IMG/VR virus record: IMGVR_UViG_3300035016_000042
Strand: one strand, 5' to 3'
Origin: a virus
Lineage: Duplodnaviria; Caudoviricetes
Length of the DNA stretch: 44,423 bases
How positions within the stretch are numbered: the stretch's first letter is position 1; every line of letters begins with the position of its first letter. Positions 36,083 through 44,423 of this stretch are shown here, one piece after another. Both the position numbers and the translations under genes were made by a program. The notes under the pieces were generated by a model. That model searched no databases. It was not told the DNA's origin and saw only the letters and a list, made by a program, of their open reading frames with translations.

Positions 36083-36140
36083 TAGTTTGCTCTAGATTGT
36101 TCTAGTTTGTTCTTGACGATGGGCTAAGTGGTGGTATCTT
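36083..36140 (+). promoter_or_regulatory. Rightward early promoter with three tandem 10-bp operator-like repeats
   Basis: TAGTTTGCTC-TAGATTGTTC-TAGTTTGTTC (36083-36112) immediately followed by TTGACG-16 nt-TATCTT with a TG extension. Confidence 0.65.
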
Positions 36141-36165
36141 CCCCACATCACTTGACGGGAGTTGT

Positions 36166-36402
36166 ATGCCACTGGCCGAGGGAAAAACCGAGGAAAGCGT
36201 GAAAATCAACGCGGCGGACTACGACCGCGCCGAGAACATCGCGCTCGACACCGGGCTGAGTCGGAAGGACTCGATCGGTGCCGCCCTGGAGGGCTGGGAT
36301 TCGTTGCCCCGCACCGTGCGGGAACGCATCCGCCGCGATCGGCTGGCCCGTGCTGCTGCTCGTGATGGCCGCCAAGGCCGTACTGAACGCGTCTCCGCTT
36401 AA
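36166..36402 (+). CDS. Cro-position DNA-binding protein, ribbon-helix-helix-like
   Basis: ESVKIN (strand) AADYDRAENIALDTG LSRKDSIGAALEGW; GGGAG RBS; first gene of the early operon. Confidence 0.65.
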   Translation: MPLAEGKTEESVKINAADYDRAENIALDTGLSRKDSIGAALEGWDSLPRTVRERIRRDRLARAAARDGRQGRTERVSA

Positions 36403-36469
36403 TCGTCCGATCGTTCAATGTTTCGCTCGGGGGCCGCGGAGATTCCGCGCTTACAGGAAAGGGAATTCC

Positions 36470-37579
36470 ATGAAAGCCTTGTCCGTCCGTCAACCGTGGG
36501 CCTCGCTGATCGCCAGCGGCGCCAAGACCTTGGAGGTCCGGAGCCGTCCCTCGCATTACCGCGGCCCGCTGCTGATCTGCTCCAGCAAGCGACAAGACGA
36601 AAGTTGGGATGCGGCTGTCTACACCGGCTGGCACCCGTATGGTCCTCGCGGCGTCATGCTCTGCGTCGTCGACCAGGTCGACTGCCGCCCGATGACCGAG
36701 ACCGATGCCGACGAGGCCTGCTGCGACTTCGCGCCCGGCTACTTCGTCCGCGTGTTTGCCAACGTGCGTCCGGTCGAGGAACGCGCTGTATCCGGTTCGC
36801 TGGGCCACTTCGACGTTGCTGATGATCTGATTCGCTTCGTTGTTCATCACGATCAAGAGACTAAACCCGCGACTCCGCCGATGACGGCGGGAACGCTAAC
36901 GAAAACCGCCGTTTCACGGCAGGGGCCCTCCGATGTCGACGCCGTTCGCGGAGTTAATTCAGCGGTGCATCGCACGCTCGGACACGAATCAATCGGGCCT
37001 AGCGGCGCGATGGGGCAAGAACGAATCGACCATGCGCAACTGGCTGCCCGGCAAGCACGGCGAGCCCCCGAAGAACGACCCGTCGGAGGATCTGCGGCAG
37101 TTGTGCCGGCGGATGAGCGACGCGGACCTGGTCGACTTCCTGCAGCTGCTGTCGGCGGGGCGGGTGTCAATTGCGCCGGTCGACCACAGCGAGCTCCCGT
37201 CCGTTGTGCGGCCGGAGCATCTACGGGATGCGTCGATGGCAGTGACCGAACGGGCCGTGGCTTACCAGGCAGAGATCAACAAGGCCTTGGGCGACAACCT
37301 GATCGACGTCGACGAGAGCCATCGGATCTTCGCGTCGGGCCTCTCGCTGTCCAAAGCCAAGCTCTGGCTTTCGCGTCTCACGGAACGCTGCTCGGTAGCG
37401 CGCAGGGTGGGCTGATCGCCGATGGTGCCGATCGCCCATTCCTGCCGCTCGCGCAGCAGTATGCCTTGGCAGTAGCTACCCGCACCGGCATCGAGGACGT
37501 GGCGGTGAGGCGGTTGTTCGACGCGGTTCTTATGGACATCGCGATGGACGACATCAACTCGACCTGCATCGAGTGCTGA
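36470..37579 (+). CDS. ASCH domain protein (domain ends near 36850; frame stays open to 37579)
   Basis: MKALSVRQPWASLIASGAKTLEVRS..YRGPLLI is the ASCH GxKxxExR signature. Confidence 0.85.
   Translation: MKALSVRQPWASLIASGAKTLEVRSRPSHYRGPLLICSSKRQDESWDAAVYTGWHPYGPRGVMLCVVDQVDCRPMTETDADEACCDFAPGYFVRVFANVRPVEERAVSGSLGHFDVADDLIRFVVHHDQETKPATPPMTAGTLTKTAVSRQGPSDVDAVRGVNSAVHRTLGHESIGPSGAMGQERIDHAQLAARQARRAPEERPVGGSAAVVPADERRGPGRLPAAAVGGAGVNCAGRPQRAPVRCAAGASTGCVDGSDRTGRGLPGRDQQGLGRQPDRRRREPSDLRVGPLAVQSQALAFASHGTLLGSAQGGLIADGADRPFLPLAQQYALAVATRTGIEDVAVRRLFDAVLMDIAMDDINSTCIEC
36933..37415 (+). CDS. HTH regulator, phage CII-like
   Basis: QSGLAARWGKNESTMRNWL HTH; C-terminal ALGDNLIDVDESHRI resembles CII-type regulators. 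Confidence 0.7.
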   Translation: MSTPFAELIQRCIARSDTNQSGLAARWGKNESTMRNWLPGKHGEPPKNDPSEDLRQLCRRMSDADLVDFLQLLSAGRVSIAPVDHSELPSVVRPEHLRDASMAVTERAVAYQAEINKALGDNLIDVDESHRIFASGLSLSKAKLWLSRLTERCSVARRVG

Positions 37580-37698
37580 GCTTTGCCGGCGGCGATCCCC
37601 GCTTGAGGTTCCCCCCCTCCTCTTGCACCCGCCGGCATTTGTACACGGCCCCGCGATCGCGAACAGCGGTCGCAGGGTGATCGGAAGGGAGTCGAGAC

Positions 37699-37914
37699 GT
37701 GTTGGCGCGAAAGGATTACCCGGTTTGGTGCGAGTGCGGCTGGCCGATCCTCATCACCTCCGTGGTGCGCGACCTGACGCTCGACTTCGAGTATCGATCC
37801 GGTGGCGTCAACGGCGCCGAGGTCGAGCGCTGCCCAAAGTGCGACGAACGGCTGCCGCTCGCCCTCGTGCTCGATATGGCGGCGGGCGACCGTCCCGGTG
37901 GGGCGGTGGCATGA
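37699..37914 (+). CDS. Small zinc-ribbon protein
   Basis: CECG...CPKC; GGGAG RBS. Confidence 0.6.
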   Translation: MLARKDYPVWCECGWPILITSVVRDLTLDFEYRSGGVNGAEVERCPKCDERLPLALVLDMAAGDRPGGAVA

Positions 37915-38162
37915 GCGACGCGACGACGCAGCTGCTGGTCGGTGACGAGGTGACCGTCGTTGTGGACCGGCTGACGGCGGCCGATCGGAAGCGGCTGGGC
38001 ACGTGGGCCCAGCAGGTCGGCGAGATCATCGGCGGCAACGTGCCGGGCTCCATGGCCCTGGTCCGGTTCAGGAAAGTGATCGGCCGCGAGCGCCGCAAGA
38101 CGGCGTTTCTGTTGCCGGTGAACGCACTACAGAAGGCCTGCTCAGCAGGCAGGGAAGGATAG
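37911..38162 (+). CDS. Hypothetical protein
   Basis: ATGA-coupled start MSDATTQ, 83 aa. Confidence 0.55.
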   Translation: MSDATTQLLVGDEVTVVVDRLTAADRKRLGTWAQQVGEIIGGNVPGSMALVRFRKVIGRERRKTAFLLPVNALQKACSAGREG

Positions 38163-38166
38163 GCAG

Positions 38167-38559
38167 ATGCCAAAGGAAACGCTGACGATCGACACGATGG
38201 GCAACATCGACGAGGGCTCGCTGCGGATCGCGGCGAACAACGCGTTCAAGCTCCTCGCGCAGGACCTCGCCGATCGGCCGGTCCTGAACAAGGCGAGAAA
38301 GATCGTGATTACGCTGGAGATGAAGCCGGTCGTCAACACGAATAGCCATTCCCCGCAGCTCGACTCGGTCGAGTACGCCTGGCACATCGCCCAGAAGGTG
38401 CCGGCGATCGGCAGCAGCGGGGGAGTCATGCAGCCCCAGCAAGACGGCACGCTCGCGTTTCACAGCGACCTGCCCGACTCGCCGAACGATGAGACGATCA
38501 TGGATGAAGCGGAACGGCGTCGCGCCGAGTTGCGCGAACGCGACCGCAACCGCGGGTGA
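38167..38559 (+). CDS. Conserved phage early protein (partner of DUF2303-like gene)
   Basis: QDLADRP..KARKIVITLEMKP pattern, paired with the downstream gene. Confidence 0.65.
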   Translation: MPKETLTIDTMGNIDEGSLRIAANNAFKLLAQDLADRPVLNKARKIVITLEMKPVVNTNSHSPQLDSVEYAWHIAQKVPAIGSSGGVMQPQQDGTLAFHSDLPDSPNDETIMDEAERRRAELRERDRNRG

Positions 38560-38615
38560 ATCCACCGCGTTGACGACTCACCTTATTAACACCCGCACAC
38601 GGGAAGGATGCAGAA

Positions 38616-39425
38616 ATGGAAACCGGAGCAAGTTGGCTGGCCGACGGCGTGAAGGAGATCGAGCGGATCACGAGGTCCGCGATGATCGTCGAGCCCAAGA
38701 TAATGAACCTCCCGCTGGAGAAGCCGGGGACGTACGCAATCTTCACGCCGGGTCCGGCGGGGCAGCCGATCAATGTCGACGTGCGCACGGCCGGGCCGCT
38801 CTGGCACAACGAGCGGCTCGAGGATCCGAAGCAGTTGATCGCATTCATCACCTCGCTAGGCGAGCGGGGCGTCAAGCCCGAAGACGGCGCGGTGTACATC
38901 AGCCAGTCGGCCGTCACGTACGTCTACAACTTCGAGGACCGCCGGCACCGGGCCACCTGCCCGCTGATCATGAGCGTGCCGTGGAAGTGGCTGAGCGTCG
39001 ACCAGAAGCCCCTTAGCCAGCGGGATCTGATCCGCCTGCTGCGCATCACGTTCGACGGCAGCCTGCCGACCGACTCCAACCTGATCTCGCTCATTCGCAC
39101 CGTGAAGTGGAAGTCCGACGGCACCGTCGAGTCCGACGTGCAGCGCGGGCGCGAGGCGCTGGGGCGCCAGATCATCCGCGAAGTGTCGGGCATCGCGAAC
39201 TTCCCGGAGGAGTTCACGCTGGACGTGCAGGTGTTCGAGAACGTGAAGCAGGACGTGCGGGTTCGGGTCGCACTCGAGCTGTTGCCCGACGTGGAGCGAT
39301 TCGAGGTGACGCCGTTCCCGACGCAGATCCACAACGGTATGGCCGAGACGCTGACCTGGCTGCAGAGCGACATCGCGCAGACGAAGGTGCCGACGTTCAT
39401 CGGGGCCGTGCGGGGTGGCGAATAG
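38616..39425 (+). CDS. DUF2303/YfdQ-like phage protein
   Basis: LSQRDLIRLLR, FPEEFTLDVQVFE and terminal VPTFIG resemble this family. Confidence 0.6.
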   Translation: METGASWLADGVKEIERITRSAMIVEPKIMNLPLEKPGTYAIFTPGPAGQPINVDVRTAGPLWHNERLEDPKQLIAFITSLGERGVKPEDGAVYISQSAVTYVYNFEDRRHRATCPLIMSVPWKWLSVDQKPLSQRDLIRLLRITFDGSLPTDSNLISLIRTVKWKSDGTVESDVQRGREALGRQIIREVSGIANFPEEFTLDVQVFENVKQDVRVRVALELLPDVERFEVTPFPTQIHNGMAETLTWLQSDIAQTKVPTFIGAVRGGE

Positions 39426-39691
39426 TGATCGTCCGACCGGCGGCTGGGCTCGGGTCCGCGCTGCTGGTCACTGACGCCCGGTCGAGAGCGTTATCTCGCC
39501 CTGAGCTGGCCGACCCAGCAGGTGTGCTGCTCTCGCTTCACGAGCGGCCGGGCCGACAGCCGTTACCTGTTGGACGCTCGCGAGTCGCGGTCACGCGGTT
39601 CGCAGCATTTGCGGCCGGGGTGTTCTCGGCCCACGGTGGATGTGCGACGCGGAGTTTTCTCTTTTCGCTGTGTCGAGACGTCCGCCGTTAC

Positions 39692-39778
39692 GCAGCGGTA
39701 GCTCAGATGGCAGAGCGTCAGCGACGTGTTCCCCCCTCGCGTCGCTGGAGGTCGCAGGTTCGAGTCCTGCACGCTGCT
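39692..39778 (+). ncRNA. tRNA-like RNA with elongated anticodon arm
   Basis: Canonical D arm (GCTC-AGATGGCA-GAGC), variable loop AGGTC, T arm (GCAGG-TTCGAGT-CCTGC), acceptor GCAGCG/CGCTGC; anticodon stem 9-11 bp with a TTCCCCCCT loop. Confidence 0.8.
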
Positions 39779-39903
39779 TTGGGCCTACGGGCTCATGGTG
39801 CATAGGTCGTGGCCGTTTCAGCGGCACCTGACACGCGACCGGGGCGACGGGCGCCCGACCGGCTGAATGTGAGCCGGTTCCCGTCGTCGACAAAGCAGGG
39901 CGT

Positions 39904-39990
39904 GCAGCGGTGTGCGGTTTCGGCCCCGGTTGGACACGACCGGATTGCCCGTCACCTGGCCACTCGCCGGTTCGAGCCCGGCCCGCTGTC
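39904..39990 (+). ncRNA. tRNA-like RNA (acceptor stem + T arm, non-canonical interior)
   Basis: GCAGCGG/CCGCTGT acceptor, GCCGG-TTCGAGC-CCGGC T arm, internal hairpin CCGGTTG-GACA-CGACCGG. Confidence 0.6.
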
Positions 39991-40003
39991 TTGAGGAGTC
40001 GTT

Positions 40004-40114
40004 ATGGCACGCTGGCAGTACTACCGAACGAAGTGGCGTCGCTGGTGCGACTGCTCGGCTTCCGACGCCGCGATCAACTCCGCGTTCGGCGTTCGGATCA
40101 GGCTTGTTGACTGA
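40004..40114 (+). CDS. 36-aa Trp/Arg-rich peptide
   Basis: GAGGAG RBS, MARWQYYRTKWRRWCDCSASDAAINSAFGVRIRLVD*. Confidence 0.45.
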   Translation: MARWQYYRTKWRRWCDCSASDAAINSAFGVRIRLVD

Positions 40115-40126
40115 AAGGAAATGTTC

Positions 40127-40489
40127 ATGAGCGTCTACAGTAGCGACAAGCCCGATACCTGCCGCGTCCCGCCCCCTGGTTGGTCGTGCAGCCGGCCGGC
40201 CGGACACGAGGGTCCGTGCGCTGCGTCGCCGATCAACTCGAAGGTGATCGATCGCAACGTCGTGATGTTCAAGCCCGACGGCGTGACGCCGCGGCACCCG
40301 TCGACCTCGGGCGTGTTGAAGCATTTCCGGTGCGATCACTTACCGGTCCAGCTTCGCGAGGTGTCGCAGCCATTTGCCAACTTGGCGTTCAAGATGGCCG
40401 ACGAGTTGCCGGAGGGCCCGGATCTGACGTGCGGGCTGCGCGACCTTCTGACGGCGAAGGACAACTGCGTCCGGGCGAAGCTCGGGTGA
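40127..40489 (+). CDS. Small phage protein with helical-hairpin C-terminus
   Basis: HF..DHLP..L..VS.PF..LA..M...LP.GP..T.GLR.LL.AKD..VRA motif; N-terminal CxRxxGHxGPC; AAAGGA RBS. Confidence 0.75.
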   Translation: MSVYSSDKPDTCRVPPPGWSCSRPAGHEGPCAASPINSKVIDRNVVMFKPDGVTPRHPSTSGVLKHFRCDHLPVQLREVSQPFANLAFKMADELPEGPDLTCGLRDLLTAKDNCVRAKLG

Positions 40490-40629
40490 CGGTAGCGGTC
40501 GTGCTGTAAGCCATCCCTGCGGAAGCACGACGAGGAACGCCGCGACCTTAATGGCGAAAGCGGACTGCAGCGGCGGCACGATGGATGTGCCGACGTCGGC
40601 GAAAGCCGGCCCGCTGCATTGGAGGTCGC
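40490..40629 (+). ncRNA. Structured RNA leader with three-way junction
   Basis: GTCGTGCT/AGCACGAC stem; TGCAGCGG/CCGCTGCA closing CGGCAC/GTGCCG and GTCGGC-GAAA-GCCGGC hairpins. Confidence 0.45.
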
Positions 40630-40630
40630 C

Positions 40631-40720
40631 ATGGTTTCAGAATCGTTCGGTGTGGCGGCGTTCGTGTTGTACTGCCTGGTCGTCGCCGCGGTGATCCTCG
40701 GCGGCGCCAAGCCGGGATGA
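40631..40720 (+). CDS. 29-aa single-TM peptide
   Basis: GGAGG RBS, MVSESFGVAAFVLYCLVVAAVILGGAKPG*. Confidence 0.5.
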   Translation: MVSESFGVAAFVLYCLVVAAVILGGAKPG

Positions 40721-40848
40721 CGGGATTCTAACGCGGTGGTCCGAGCAGCGAGAGGCCTGACGAGGCGGGTAGCTGCCACACATTAGGGTCGGAGCGGAAT
40801 GTACATCTGCCCGACCGAAGCCCGACGGATCGGAGACGTCGGGGATAT

Positions 40849-40922
40849 CGCAGGGTAGAGCAGCATGGCAGCTCGCCGGGCTCATAATCCGGAGGTCGCG
40901 GGTTCGAATCCCGCCCCTGCTA
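40849..40922 (+). tRNA. tRNA-Met(CAT), initiator type, phage-encoded
   Basis: Full cloverleaf; C1:U72 mismatch, A11:U24, loop CTCATAA; CCA not encoded. Confidence 0.93.
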
Positions 40923-40939
40923 CTGAATCAACGTGAGGT

Positions 40940-41290
40940 ATGACGATGGCCGACGCAAAAGACAGTGAAACGAAGCAGCCGAAGGCGACGCGCCGGCGCC
41001 AGCCACGCCAGGGCGACTTGTGGACGTTGAGGGACGTCGGCCGACGCCTCACGTGCGCCGACGAGACGGCCGCCCGCTGGCTCGAAAAACACAACGTTGC
41101 GCGCTACGACATCGGCACCGGCAGCCGCGACGAGATCCGGGTGAAGCCGGCCGACGTCGAGGCCGCGCTCGAAGGTTGCCTCGTGTCCGGCACGCCCGCA
41201 GCGGCCACCCATGAACGGCACGAGCGCGGTTACACGCCGAAGTACAGGCCCAGCCGGAGCGACGGCGGCGCGGTCACGTCGTCTCGGTGA
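40940..41290 (+). CDS. xis: Excisionase-like HTH protein
   Basis: LWTLRDVGRRLTCADETAARWL..IRVKPADVEAAL winged-HTH pattern; GAGGT RBS; convergent with the integrase. Confidence 0.7.
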   Translation: MTMADAKDSETKQPKATRRRQPRQGDLWTLRDVGRRLTCADETAARWLEKHNVARYDIGTGSRDEIRVKPADVEAALEGCLVSGTPAAATHERHERGYTPKYRPSRSDGGAVTSSR

Positions 41291-42650
41291 CGGGTTGCAC
41301 GTCAGCAGTCGCCGCCGGTTGTTCCTCCGGCGGCTTCGGGTCGATCGCCCCCAGTTTCTCGACCAGGTTTTCCAGCGTCAGTTCGTTGGGATCACAAGCG
41401 AAGAGCGTCCGATGAACGTAGTCCGTCACAGCTCGCAGCCGCTCGATCGGGATCGCTCGCACGTAGTGCGGGTCCATCCCGGTCAGGTCCTGCCCCTGGA
41501 TTCGGCGGACCGCATCCTTGTCCTTCGTGTCGTTGCCGATCGTCGCGAACGTCCGACGCAGCGCGTAGAAGGCGCGCTTCTTTCGCTTCATCGGCCGGGT
41601 CACAAGCCCGCCTCGGCTGTCCGGCTCAGTGACCGTCAGCTTCGCCTCGAACTTCCGGTGTGCCGTGCCGATCTCGTCGTTCGGCGCGACCTCGCCGATC
41701 GTCCCGTCCTTGTCCTCGAAGAACTCGCGCACCCAGGCGTGCCCGCACCGCGTGCGGAACAGCAGGCCCTTCGCGTCGTCACACACGGTGTCGGGGCGGA
41801 TCGCCATCGCCTTGCGGATCGCCTCCGCGGTGACCGGCCAGACGGTCAGTTGGAAGAGCTCCTCGGTCTTCGTCCTAACCCAATCGACGTACAGCTTGGC
41901 GAAGTCGAGCTTCCGCTCGGGCAGGTCGCTGATGTGGCTCTGGCCCATGCCGCCGTTGAGCCCCAGCAGCACGAACGACAGGATGTTCCACTCCTCGGCC
42001 TCGCACGCCGCGATCACCTGCAGCCGGCACTCCTGGGGCGAGTAGATGGGCATGCCGTGTTCGTCCTCCATCTCGCGCCGCTCGCGCTTCACGTGCTTCT
42101 GCTTGGCCTTGGCCAGCGCGTCGTCCTCGTGACGGGCGACGGTGAGCAGCGGGCGCGGCTTGAGCTTGTAGGCCCAGCGGAGCATCTTCTTGGTCTTCGT
42201 GACGTAGCGGTTGAAGCTCGTCAGCTGCATGCGCCGCTTCAGGTGCGTCCGGTACTCATCGAGCGGCGGGATGTCGGCCGCCAGCCGGTCCTCGCCGGCC
42301 CAGGTCCGGAACGCCAGGGCGGCGCGGCGCAGGTCGTCGAACTCGCGGATGCCGATGTCGCCGGCGCGGAATCGCTCCTCCTGGGCAATGATGAACCGGT
42401 CGGTCAGCTCGAGGACGGTCACGCGCGACGCGTCGGCCGTGACGGGCTGGCGGTCAGCGAGGATGTCGGGCAGCTCGCGGAGGAACCGCTCGCGTGCGGC
42501 CGTCTCGTCTTTGCCGAAGTAGAAGTTCCTTCGCCGGCCGTGGACGCGCTTCGGGATGTACCACTGACCGTTGGGGTGGAGGCGCAGTTGCGGGATCTTC
42601 TTGCCGCGCCCTCGCTTGACGGGACGTTGGGGGGCCGTACGATCAGTCAT
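41274..42650 (-). CDS. int: Prophage tyrosine integrase
   Basis: N-terminal arm-binding-like domain (LHPNGQWY..GRRRNFYFGK), LLGLNGGMG box I, RTKT, YALRRTF, QGQ, HYV. Confidence 0.88.
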   Translation of the reverse strand: MTDRTAPQRPVKRGRGKKIPQLRLHPNGQWYIPKRVHGRRRNFYFGKDETAARERFLRELPDILADRQPVTADASRVTVLELTDRFIIAQEERFRAGDIGIREFDDLRRAALAFRTWAGEDRLAADIPPLDEYRTHLKRRMQLTSFNRYVTKTKKMLRWAYKLKPRPLLTVARHEDDALAKAKQKHVKRERREMEDEHGMPIYSPQECRLQVIAACEAEEWNILSFVLLGLNGGMGQSHISDLPERKLDFAKLYVDWVRTKTEELFQLTVWPVTAEAIRKAMAIRPDTVCDDAKGLLFRTRCGHAWVREFFEDKDGTIGEVAPNDEIGTAHRKFEAKLTVTEPDSRGGLVTRPMKRKKRAFYALRRTFATIGNDTKDKDAVRRIQGQDLTGMDPHYVRAIPIERLRAVTDYVHRTLFACDPNELTLENLVEKLGAIDPKPPEEQPAATADVQPVTETT

Positions 42651-42774: not shown

Positions 42775-42848
42775 GCACTCGTAGCTCAATTGGACAGAGC
42801 ATCGGTCTTCGGAACCGAGGGTTACAGGTTCGACTCCTGTCGAGTGCA
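42775..42848 (+). tRNA. tRNA-Arg(TCG), probable integration target
   Basis: GCACTCG/CGAGTGC acceptor, D loop with A20, anticodon loop CTTCGGA, T arm ACAGG-TTCGACT-CCTGT; CCA not encoded. Confidence 0.95.
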
Positions 42849-42986: not shown

Positions 42987-44423
42987 ATGGCCAGATTGCC
43001 TGACGGTGAACTTTCAAGACATCCAGTCCACGGCTTTCGCGTAACTGTCGGTCGTAAGGTGGACGGGAAACCTCGCCTGTTCTGGCTCGGGAAGAACGAG
43101 GACTACGCACGGTTTGCTGCATGGACTTATCGAACTGGTTGGCAGCAAATGCAGGCTTGCGGAATCAAGCACTGGACCCCCGACATGGAGCAGCGGGTCA
43201 AGGAAACGATCGACTTTGCTCAGCGTGCTCTAAGAGACCGCATTCAAGACCATCAGGTCAGGGGTGAAATGATTGCCCCAGTACGAGGGATCGTCTTCCC
43301 AGGTACCACTGCTCATATACCGCCTGCTTCGCTGGTCGAGGAGAAGCCTGTACAACAGCAGCCCGCGAAGACGCTTTATCAAGCGATCGAAACCTACCTT
43401 CAGACGATCAAGGGCAAGCGTATCTCTGACGCCCACAAGTGGCGTGCGGAACAAGTCGTGGGCGTGACGCTCAAGCACGCGGTCCCTGACTGCCCCATGG
43501 AGCAAATTGACTTTGCTTGGCTCGACCGGCTCGCGGACCACTTCAAGTCGCGTCCCAAGTCCAGGAAGGGCAAGCGTAGAAATCGCAAACCGATCGGTCC
43601 CCAGACCGTCAAGACGAACCTCGCGTACATCCGCCAATTCTTTGTGTGGTGCGACGACGTGACCTTCGGGGGCTGGGAAGGTCCTAGGAAACTAACCAAA
43701 CCTTTCAGGGTCCGCCTCGACGACCTGCGCACACCCGCAGAACTTCGCCAGGCGAATACGATCGAGCAATTTGACCTACCGACACTTGTGAAGATCTACA
43801 GGGCCGCTAATGACTACCAGAAGGCGATCATGCTGACCGCACTGTTCACAGCCGGCACTCAACGAGAACTGGCCGTGCTTGAGAAGTCTGAGTTTGATCT
43901 GCAAGCAGGAGTGCTGCACCACTGGCGGAATAAAACTAAAATCGAGGGCCGTTTCTGGCTTCCACCGGAGTTAATCCTATTGCTAAAGGAGGAGTTCAAG
44001 AAGCACCGGAAGCGACCTTTGGCCTTCTACACGGCCCACGGATTCTCGCTTGTCACCTACCTGAACGGAAAACTCGTAAGCGACGCGGTACGACAAATGT
44101 GGGTCGACCTCCGAGTGAAGGCTCAGGTCCCTACCGCCCTCAGCTTTAAGTATCTGCGAAAGTTCGTCGCCGACTTCATGGTCCGTCATGGCGGTGAGGC
44201 AATCGGACAGATCGCGCTTAGCCACGCGCCCACCTCAATCCTGGCGAAAAATTATACGAGAGCTCGCGATTTCGGTGCATTTAACGAGCTACAACGCCAG
44301 ATGTACGCCGAGTTTACTTCAGCTGGGATGTTTGAAACGGACTTCAGGGATGACGTCGAGCGAATCCGCCACGCAGGCCGCATGACTTCAGAGCCGGCGA
44401 AAGACCTCATACATGAGAGTTAA
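42987..44423 (+). CDS. int: Tyrosine recombinase/integrase of a second element
   Basis: AAGGAG RBS, ATG 42987; RNKT, FKYLRK, LSH, NYT motifs; more AT-rich than the prophage; lies 3' of the tRNA. Confidence 0.85.
   Translation: MARLPDGELSRHPVHGFRVTVGRKVDGKPRLFWLGKNEDYARFAAWTYRTGWQQMQACGIKHWTPDMEQRVKETIDFAQRALRDRIQDHQVRGEMIAPVRGIVFPGTTAHIPPASLVEEKPVQQQPAKTLYQAIETYLQTIKGKRISDAHKWRAEQVVGVTLKHAVPDCPMEQIDFAWLDRLADHFKSRPKSRKGKRRNRKPIGPQTVKTNLAYIRQFFVWCDDVTFGGWEGPRKLTKPFRVRLDDLRTPAELRQANTIEQFDLPTLVKIYRAANDYQKAIMLTALFTAGTQRELAVLEKSEFDLQAGVLHHWRNKTKIEGRFWLPPELILLLKEEFKKHRKRPLAFYTAHGFSLVTYLNGKLVSDAVRQMWVDLRVKAQVPTALSFKYLRKFVADFMVRHGGEAIGQIALSHAPTSILAKNYTRARDFGAFNELQRQMYAEFTSAGMFETDFRDDVERIRHAGRMTSEPAKDLIHES

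Follow-up and report, generated by a model that had tools for sequence, protein, structure and literature searches.

A compact tRNA look-alike with an extended, putatively non-decoding arm, paired with a top-half tRNA mimic in a prophage early gene run

What could a gene with the body of a tRNA and no usable anticodon do in the early region of a temperate phage? The locus raising this question lies in a stretch of 44,423 nt (record IMGVR_UViG_3300035016_000042; hereafter the window), which is a prophage with genes for terminase, portal, protease and capsid, together with RecT and a CII-like gene. The element that drew attention, here named element 1, is laid out as follows.

39692..39778, + strand: element 1, an 87-nt tRNA-shaped RNA gene with a full body and an extended, putatively non-decoding arm (RF00005; pair-by-pair stem check)
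39692..39698, + strand: 5' strand of the element 1 acceptor, whose partner is 39771-39777, 6/7 paired (stem check)
39701..39716, + strand: element 1 D arm of 4 bp, which includes G15 and G18 G19
39718..39748, + strand: element 1 extended arm where the anticodon arm belongs, 11 bp, closed by a pyrimidine loop of 9 nt (39729-39737)
39749..39770, + strand: element 1 variable loop of 5 nt with terminal C48, then a 5-bp T arm with canonical loop

A first-pass annotation had placed here a tRNA mimic with canonical D arm, variable loop and T arm and an extended, fully paired anticodon stem closed by a loop that departs from 7 nt. A pair-by-pair check showed that it had both the position and the anatomy right; the acceptor also contains a G7-A66 mismatch that it did not mention. 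The Rfam tRNA model RF00005 matches element 1 with 45.9 bits (E 2e-7), with 21 nt in place of the expected 7, and the stem check agrees on the canonical parts: U8 is present, the discriminator U73 is the U at 39778, and the elbow contacts are intact, with G15-C48, G18 G19 and the T loop all canonical. ARAGORN with default settings makes no call at element 1. The extended arm consists of 11 consecutive pairs (9 Watson-Crick and 2 G-U), each with a pairing probability of at least 0.94 (range 0.94-1.0), and positions 32-33 are G-A instead of the usual pyrimidine-U. When the 21-nt insert was shuffled in 200,000 trials, at least 6 extra stacked pairs arose in 0.04% of the shuffles (P 0.0004). The lowest-energy ViennaRNA fold of element 1 is an unbranched hairpin (-44.5 kcal/mol) and the cloverleaf lies 2.8 higher (-41.7), the long arm being identical in both folds. 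Element 1 does not encode CCA, which is normal here, as 0/72 parsable tRNA genes of the genome do so.

Compared with a canonical tRNA (RF00005), element 1 has the acceptor, D and T arms and the elbow nucleotides, and it is without the 5-bp anticodon stem, the 7-nt loop, U33 and purine 37. A double-length arm lacking U33 would be incompatible with the decoding geometry of the ribosome. With a hairpin of 11 bp and a 9-nt loop as its anticodon arm, element 1 would not decode; it is a real phage tRNA look-alike.

A search of the window for acceptor-plus-T-arm folds returned four, namely two tRNAs, element 1 and a second element close downstream, and no such fold appeared in 100 shuffles of the window.

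39779..39903, + strand: spacer between elements 1 and 2, 125 nt, with three predicted hairpins
39904..39990, + strand: element 2, an 87-nt top-half tRNA mimic with acceptor and T arm (fold search, shuffles)

Element 2 has a 7/7 acceptor and a perfect T arm, keeping all 12/12 acceptor and T pairs; it has no D arm and carries a long irregular hairpin. The two elements have their first 8 nt in common and are identical at 42/87 positions without gaps, and element 2 is probably a diverged duplicate of element 1. A Shine-Dalgarno site and ATG start follow 2 nt past element 2. The spacer (39779-39903) is modestly structured, with a folding z of -1.86, and a DNA search of 101 host-family genomes and 50,697 phage records found no homologue of it.

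The surroundings of the pair are those of an early transcription unit.

36113..36140, + strand: sigma-70-like promoter candidate heading the gene run with both elements (consensus match only)
38616..39425, + strand: DUF2303-like / PHROG 210 early gene, the upstream synteny anchor
39426..39691, + strand: structured leader of 266 nt, apparently non-coding, from the DUF2303-like gene to element 1 (z -3.6)
40849..40923, + strand: prophage tRNA-Met(CAT), initiator type (ARAGORN, Rfam)
41274..42650, - strand: likely prophage integrase (from its position and a homologue)
42775..42848, + strand: tRNA-Arg(TCG), likely attachment site (5' part repeated on contig C63)

Elements 1 and 2 sit within a co-directional early gene run behind the promoter-like site at 36113, and no terminator-like site was found on the + strand from 36140 to 41500. 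Two ORFs overlapping element 1 (39640-39831 and 39107-39805) and a small ORF at 40005 have no PHROG match. Downstream, 40490-40848 is apparently non-coding and folds better than its shuffles (z -2.7); neither it nor 39426-39691 has an Rfam match or a homologue, and 120-nt windows of the flanks mostly stay within background, in which 8/72 windows have z below -2. The prophage ends at tRNA-Arg(TCG) and appears to have integrated at the 5' half of this gene, which is repeated at C63:24632-24679. The candidate integrase matches no Pfam or PHROG family, and its 56% identical homologue in another genome (G052) adjoins the same tRNA-Arg. The 3' half of tRNA-Arg(TCG) is used by a separate element with its own integrase (42987-44348), with the repeat at C60:76199-76255.

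Is this pair of RNAs a fixed part of the phage? Elements 1 and 2 are absent from 6/6 related phage loci, and the block that carries them is therefore accessory, with no ordinary tRNA in its place. In the related prophage L228, where the upstream protein is 66% identical, a degenerate tRNA-Met stands almost directly after the DUF2303-like gene. Initiator-type tRNA-Met genes occur in three related loci (L228:6930-7000, L230:6640-6714 and L232:10529-10869), with a duplication in L232 and a non-standard anticodon loop in L228. No close orthologue of element 1 was found by DNA search of 101 host-family genomes or in the phage records. Exact patterns in IMG/VR returned a single locus, at which ARAGORN makes two long tRNA-Ile calls, and none further; the upstream DUF2303-like protein had no match in IMG/VR, and when the block was compared by blastn with 50,697 phage records, the only matches were T-arm stretches of 30 nt in 10 Vibrio phage records.

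Relatives in shape are nevertheless close at hand. The same genome carries a second long-arm look-alike with the same acceptor start (L017; G000:C16:21395-21492, - strand) in a phage-like early region, preceded by an HNH gene and accompanied by RusA, methyltransferase and repressor-like genes, its acceptor being imperfect. Long-arm pattern scans were positive in 2/141 host-family genomes (1 besides this one) and in 4/401 host-phylum genomes, one of them via a run of N, and are thus rare in cells; on these counts a core host RNA was rejected. Among the pattern matches, 3/4 genome loci were real-looking, 3/6 viral loci were aberrant, and approximately 6/11 metagenome loci were look-alikes, the others being doubtful or chance matches. 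In an alignment of 11 look-alikes with the same acceptor, 93% of stem cells pair and 29 two-sided changes fall in the T stem and the arm base; the search pattern itself dictated the acceptor and D arms, which are hence uninformative. The arms of these 11 have no common sequence and their loops share nothing. The GCAGCGG acceptor was also considered as a family signature and rejected: in an unbiased scan, 29/38 viral loci that carry it proved to be ordinary tRNAs belonging to 12 isotypes, so it is not a marker, while 3 of the other loci are aberrant and 6 receive no ARAGORN call. A local GCAGCGG lineage within this host group is possible. One long-arm element in host-like surroundings (L028:2486-2569, - strand), called tRNA-Pro by ARAGORN and found also in a same-family genome, lies just upstream of a repressor gene with HTH and S24 peptidase domains. 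Another look-alike (L029:2501-2579) is near a GNAT gene and has downstream of it a short ORF, which by eye we take to resemble CsrA.

To see the design outside this host group, viral sequences were scanned with a generic pattern (D arm, 29-59 nt, T loop), which gave at least 120 loci; for this one narrow pattern the scan estimates ~530 stretches in IMG/VR. After 12 exact duplicates were dropped, 108 distinct viral sequences were sorted heuristically. Nearly half of the sample (50/108) has an intact body with an extended arm lacking a pyrimidine-U loop, a count to be read with a pattern that favors intact D and T arms and with some near-duplicates among the 50; the remainder comprises 25 other irregular sequences, 15 with a damaged body, 14 of intron type and 4 class II-like. 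Acceptor pairing, which the pattern did not require, reaches 6 or 7 of 7 in 95/108, compared with 4.9 when the 3' strands were swapped. The 50 long-arm members have 47 distinct acceptor strands between them, and each of the four discriminators occurs; CCA is encoded in 9, and C48, facing G15, is kept in 47/50. Another ARAGORN tRNA lies within 300 bp in 11/50 and in none of the other 39/50, so bracketing by tRNAs is not a general rule. Across phages, the shape persists, and neither the amino-acid identity nor the sequence of the arm does. Together with the anatomy of element 1, this survey supports the earlier view of a maintained, non-decoding RNA that is not the outcome of simple decay, and it suggests that tRNA-like long-arm genes are common in viruses. 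ARAGORN assigns an amino acid, wrongly, to 31/50 long-arm members, an error that would skew studies of codon compensation by phage tRNAs.

Two related contigs in the survey carry arrays of at least 6 back-to-back tRNA-shaped genes (L035:1521-2077 and L040:1377-1935) with intact acceptors and T arms, irregular anticodon arms and one large D-loop insert. A long-arm subfamily (L041, L068, L115, L117, L135, L138, L140, L146 and L153) shares an arm motif of ~30 nt on unrelated acceptor stems, the conserved part being here the arm and not the body.

The design is already annotated in phage T5 and is common in uncultured phages. T5 RNA1 and RNA2 (AY543070, 30501-30644 and 32959-33083), labeled 'tRNA-like stable RNA with unknown functions', likewise have an acceptor, a D-like arm and a T arm around an over-long arm at the anticodon position, and element 1 shares with this type, a descriptive group rather than a curated family, the phage tRNA body and the over-long arm. 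The T5 RNAs measure 125-144 nt, have a variable arm and belong to a lytic-phage tRNA cluster in which RNA1 abuts other stable RNAs, whereas element 1 is compact (87 nt, short variable loop); its place in a temperate early operon and its pairing with a top-half mimic are the other new features here. The first-pass annotation contained neither element 2 (39904-39990) nor this T5 precedent. In phage T4, species 1 RNA (rnaC) carries a T arm close to its 3' end, and long hairpins replace its D and anticodon arms; in this it resembles element 2. The T4 RNAs are late transcripts from a tRNA cluster, and element 1 instead keeps a full D arm. The roles of T4 species 1 (rnaC) and species 2 (rnaD) RNAs are given as unknown in PMC3014915 and PMC9697503. 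In the blastn comparison with the 50,697 phage records, neither the T5 nor the T4 RNAs proved homologous in sequence to the block.

Other tRNA-shaped RNAs are more distant. An engineered tRNA scaffold joins acceptor, D and T arms to a foreign hairpin that substitutes for the anticodon stem-loop (PMC3753655) and is artificial, whereas element 1 is natural. Irregular tRNA polycistrons and inactive allo-tRNAs are described as tRNA-shaped, apparently non-translating and sometimes arranged in arrays, but these have an 8/4 or 9/3 acceptor branch and an anticodon loop, where element 1 has 7/5 and no anticodon loop (PMC5389517). The YrlA Y RNA of bacteria and phages mimics a tRNA and has both a D and a T arm, one example being a substrate of RNase P and CCA addition (PMC4201824), yet its arms are in another order and it occurs with Ro60, unlike element 1. 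Consistent with this, the YrlA model RF02553 gave no match at element 1 and 12 sub-threshold matches elsewhere in the genome, and no Ro60/Rsr TROVE gene (PF05731) was found in this 95.5% complete genome. No published account of the class was found in the literature searched, in which older and subscription papers are thinly covered.

What, then, could such an RNA do? The reading that we prefer, and to which we give about an even chance, is that element 1 is a naturally occurring tRNA scaffold, a likely substrate of RNase P and RNase Z, and that it punctuates the early transcript. The L-shaped body is kept while the parts that would be read by a synthetase, the ribosome or an antisense target vary, which indicates the general tRNA-processing enzymes. 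Host RNase P RNA is present in the genome; engineered tRNA scaffolds with a replaced anticodon stem-loop are recognized by cellular factors of E. coli (PMC3753655), and bacterial RNase P is described as tolerating extensive truncation and as processing phage regulatory RNAs (PMC4919922). We therefore infer cleavage at both elements. The early transcript would be made, element 1 would be cut out of it by host RNase P and RNase Z, element 2 would be cleaved in the same way, and CCA addition would give a stable product of 87-90 nt. The two bodies would thereby act as punctuation in the transcript: the intervening 125-nt RNA would be set free, and the message downstream would acquire a new end. 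The sealed arm would keep the element 1 product off the ribosome. Element 1 would likely act both as a processing signal and as a stable scaffold. A like arrangement exists in T5 (AY543070), where RNA1, RNAI, RNAIII and tRNA-His abut within 4 nt. Several observations count against this reading: the G7-A66 mismatch, a cloverleaf that is not the lowest-energy fold, a weakly structured spacer without homologue, the absence of the block from the six related loci and the lack of a close orthologue of element 1.

More speculatively, and as a possibility that we hold only tentatively, a generic tRNA body could be a widespread phage chassis, matured by RNase P, RNase Z and the CCA enzyme, on which the arm or the bracketed RNA is swappable cargo directed against host or rival-phage proteins. 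If so, an uncatalogued class, routinely missed or mis-annotated as tRNA, would account for the stable RNAs of T4 and T5, and the pair would be a compact member of it from a temperate phage.

An unlikely, although serious, alternative is a decaying tRNA pseudogene without a function, whose anticodon disappeared when a mutation formed the hairpin; element 2 would then be a further-decayed duplicate. Template switching can perfect hairpins, which counts in its favor, as do the mismatched acceptor of element 1 and the imperfect one of the C16 copy. The block is accessory and missing at six related loci, with a degenerate tRNA-Met at the matching position of L228, and the surveys are biased to intact bodies. 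Against this stand the intact D arm, T arm and elbow of element 1, and the fact that element 2 has lost its D arm and yet keeps its 12/12 acceptor and T pairs. Moreover, no trace of the old loop is left at the arm base and no host tRNA is prominent as parent (best scores 67, 66 and 65.5), so the change in the anticodon arm would not be recent, and yet the body is intact. The design also recurs with many acceptors and as whole arrays (L035, L040).

The first-pass annotation also proposed a decoy for nucleases, and we regard this as improbable. An abundant tRNA shape, uncleavable or never charged, would occupy host tRNA nucleases or acceptor-end-modifying toxins early in infection. The accessory position in an early operon fits such a role, as do the RecT genes upstream both here and in L025 and L026, and among long-arm viral members the body is kept and the anticodon left free. 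Defenses that cut tRNA are common, and irregular non-translating tRNAs are described near toxin-antitoxin genes (PMC5389517). The decoy is weakened because published rescue by phage tRNAs needs the cognate anticodon: when 245 coliphage tRNAs were screened, PtuAB and AriB were countered by cognate anticodons only (PMC12445682), and retron-Eco7 rescue was abolished by an anticodon change (PMC11555353). The same dependence on a cognate anticodon is reported for rescue from OLD (PMC12445682, PMC11555353). Many non-cognate tRNA bodies would in any case already be in the cell, and the look-alikes have no common identity elements aiming at one enzyme. The two-element locus is a small test case for separating processing from a decoy.

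Very little speaks for an antisense RNA of the P1 C4 or P4 CI type, as also suggested earlier, in which the C-rich loop would meet a G-rich target such as a ribosome-binding site. The element 1 loop is indeed unpaired and pyrimidine-rich, and RNase P is reported to process several phage regulatory RNAs (PMC4919922). Within the window, however, complementarity to the 14-nt loop region extends over 9 nt at most, with no 11-nt match even when G-U pairs are allowed, and 9-mers of the loop region occur 14-46 times in the genome, these counts being what covers the prophage outside the window. The C4 covariance model (RF01695) does not match at element 1, and the loops of its look-alikes differ from one another.

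A role as synthetase ligand, also raised in that annotation, fares poorly as well, since no parent isotype is prominent and discriminators vary among look-alikes; its most concrete form, a tRNA-Gly mimic bound or charged by glycyl-tRNA synthetase, we consider highly unlikely. G1-C72, C2-G71, U73 and the C-rich loop are part of the bacterial glycine identity set as listed in PMC9976931, and the D-arm region is identical at 22/23 nt to host tRNA-Gly(CCC). However, A3-U70 replaces the G3-C70 of the host, and the loop is shifted by 6 bp. Over its whole length the gene resembles Gly no more closely than His or Arg, the arm matches the best host anticodon arm no better than expected by chance (P 0.67), and U73 is not kept among look-alikes. 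Descent from tRNA-Gly(CCC) was rejected, the similarity not being significant.

An intron-containing tRNA spliced to a normal one can be practically dismissed: relaxed ARAGORN with introns calls element 1 a tRNA-Ala with a 12-nt intron, and 14/108 surveyed viral sequences are of intron type, but most of the 39 calls that this run produces across the window are spurious, and element 1 has G-A at 32-33 and a fully paired arm that lacks a bulge-helix-bulge and could not, by a wide margin in length, hold a group I intron.

Outside the window, the same contig carries an array of ~25 tRNA genes (G000:C60:100151-103950), which includes class I-shaped tRNA-Leu genes and several tRNA-like sequences missed by ARAGORN.
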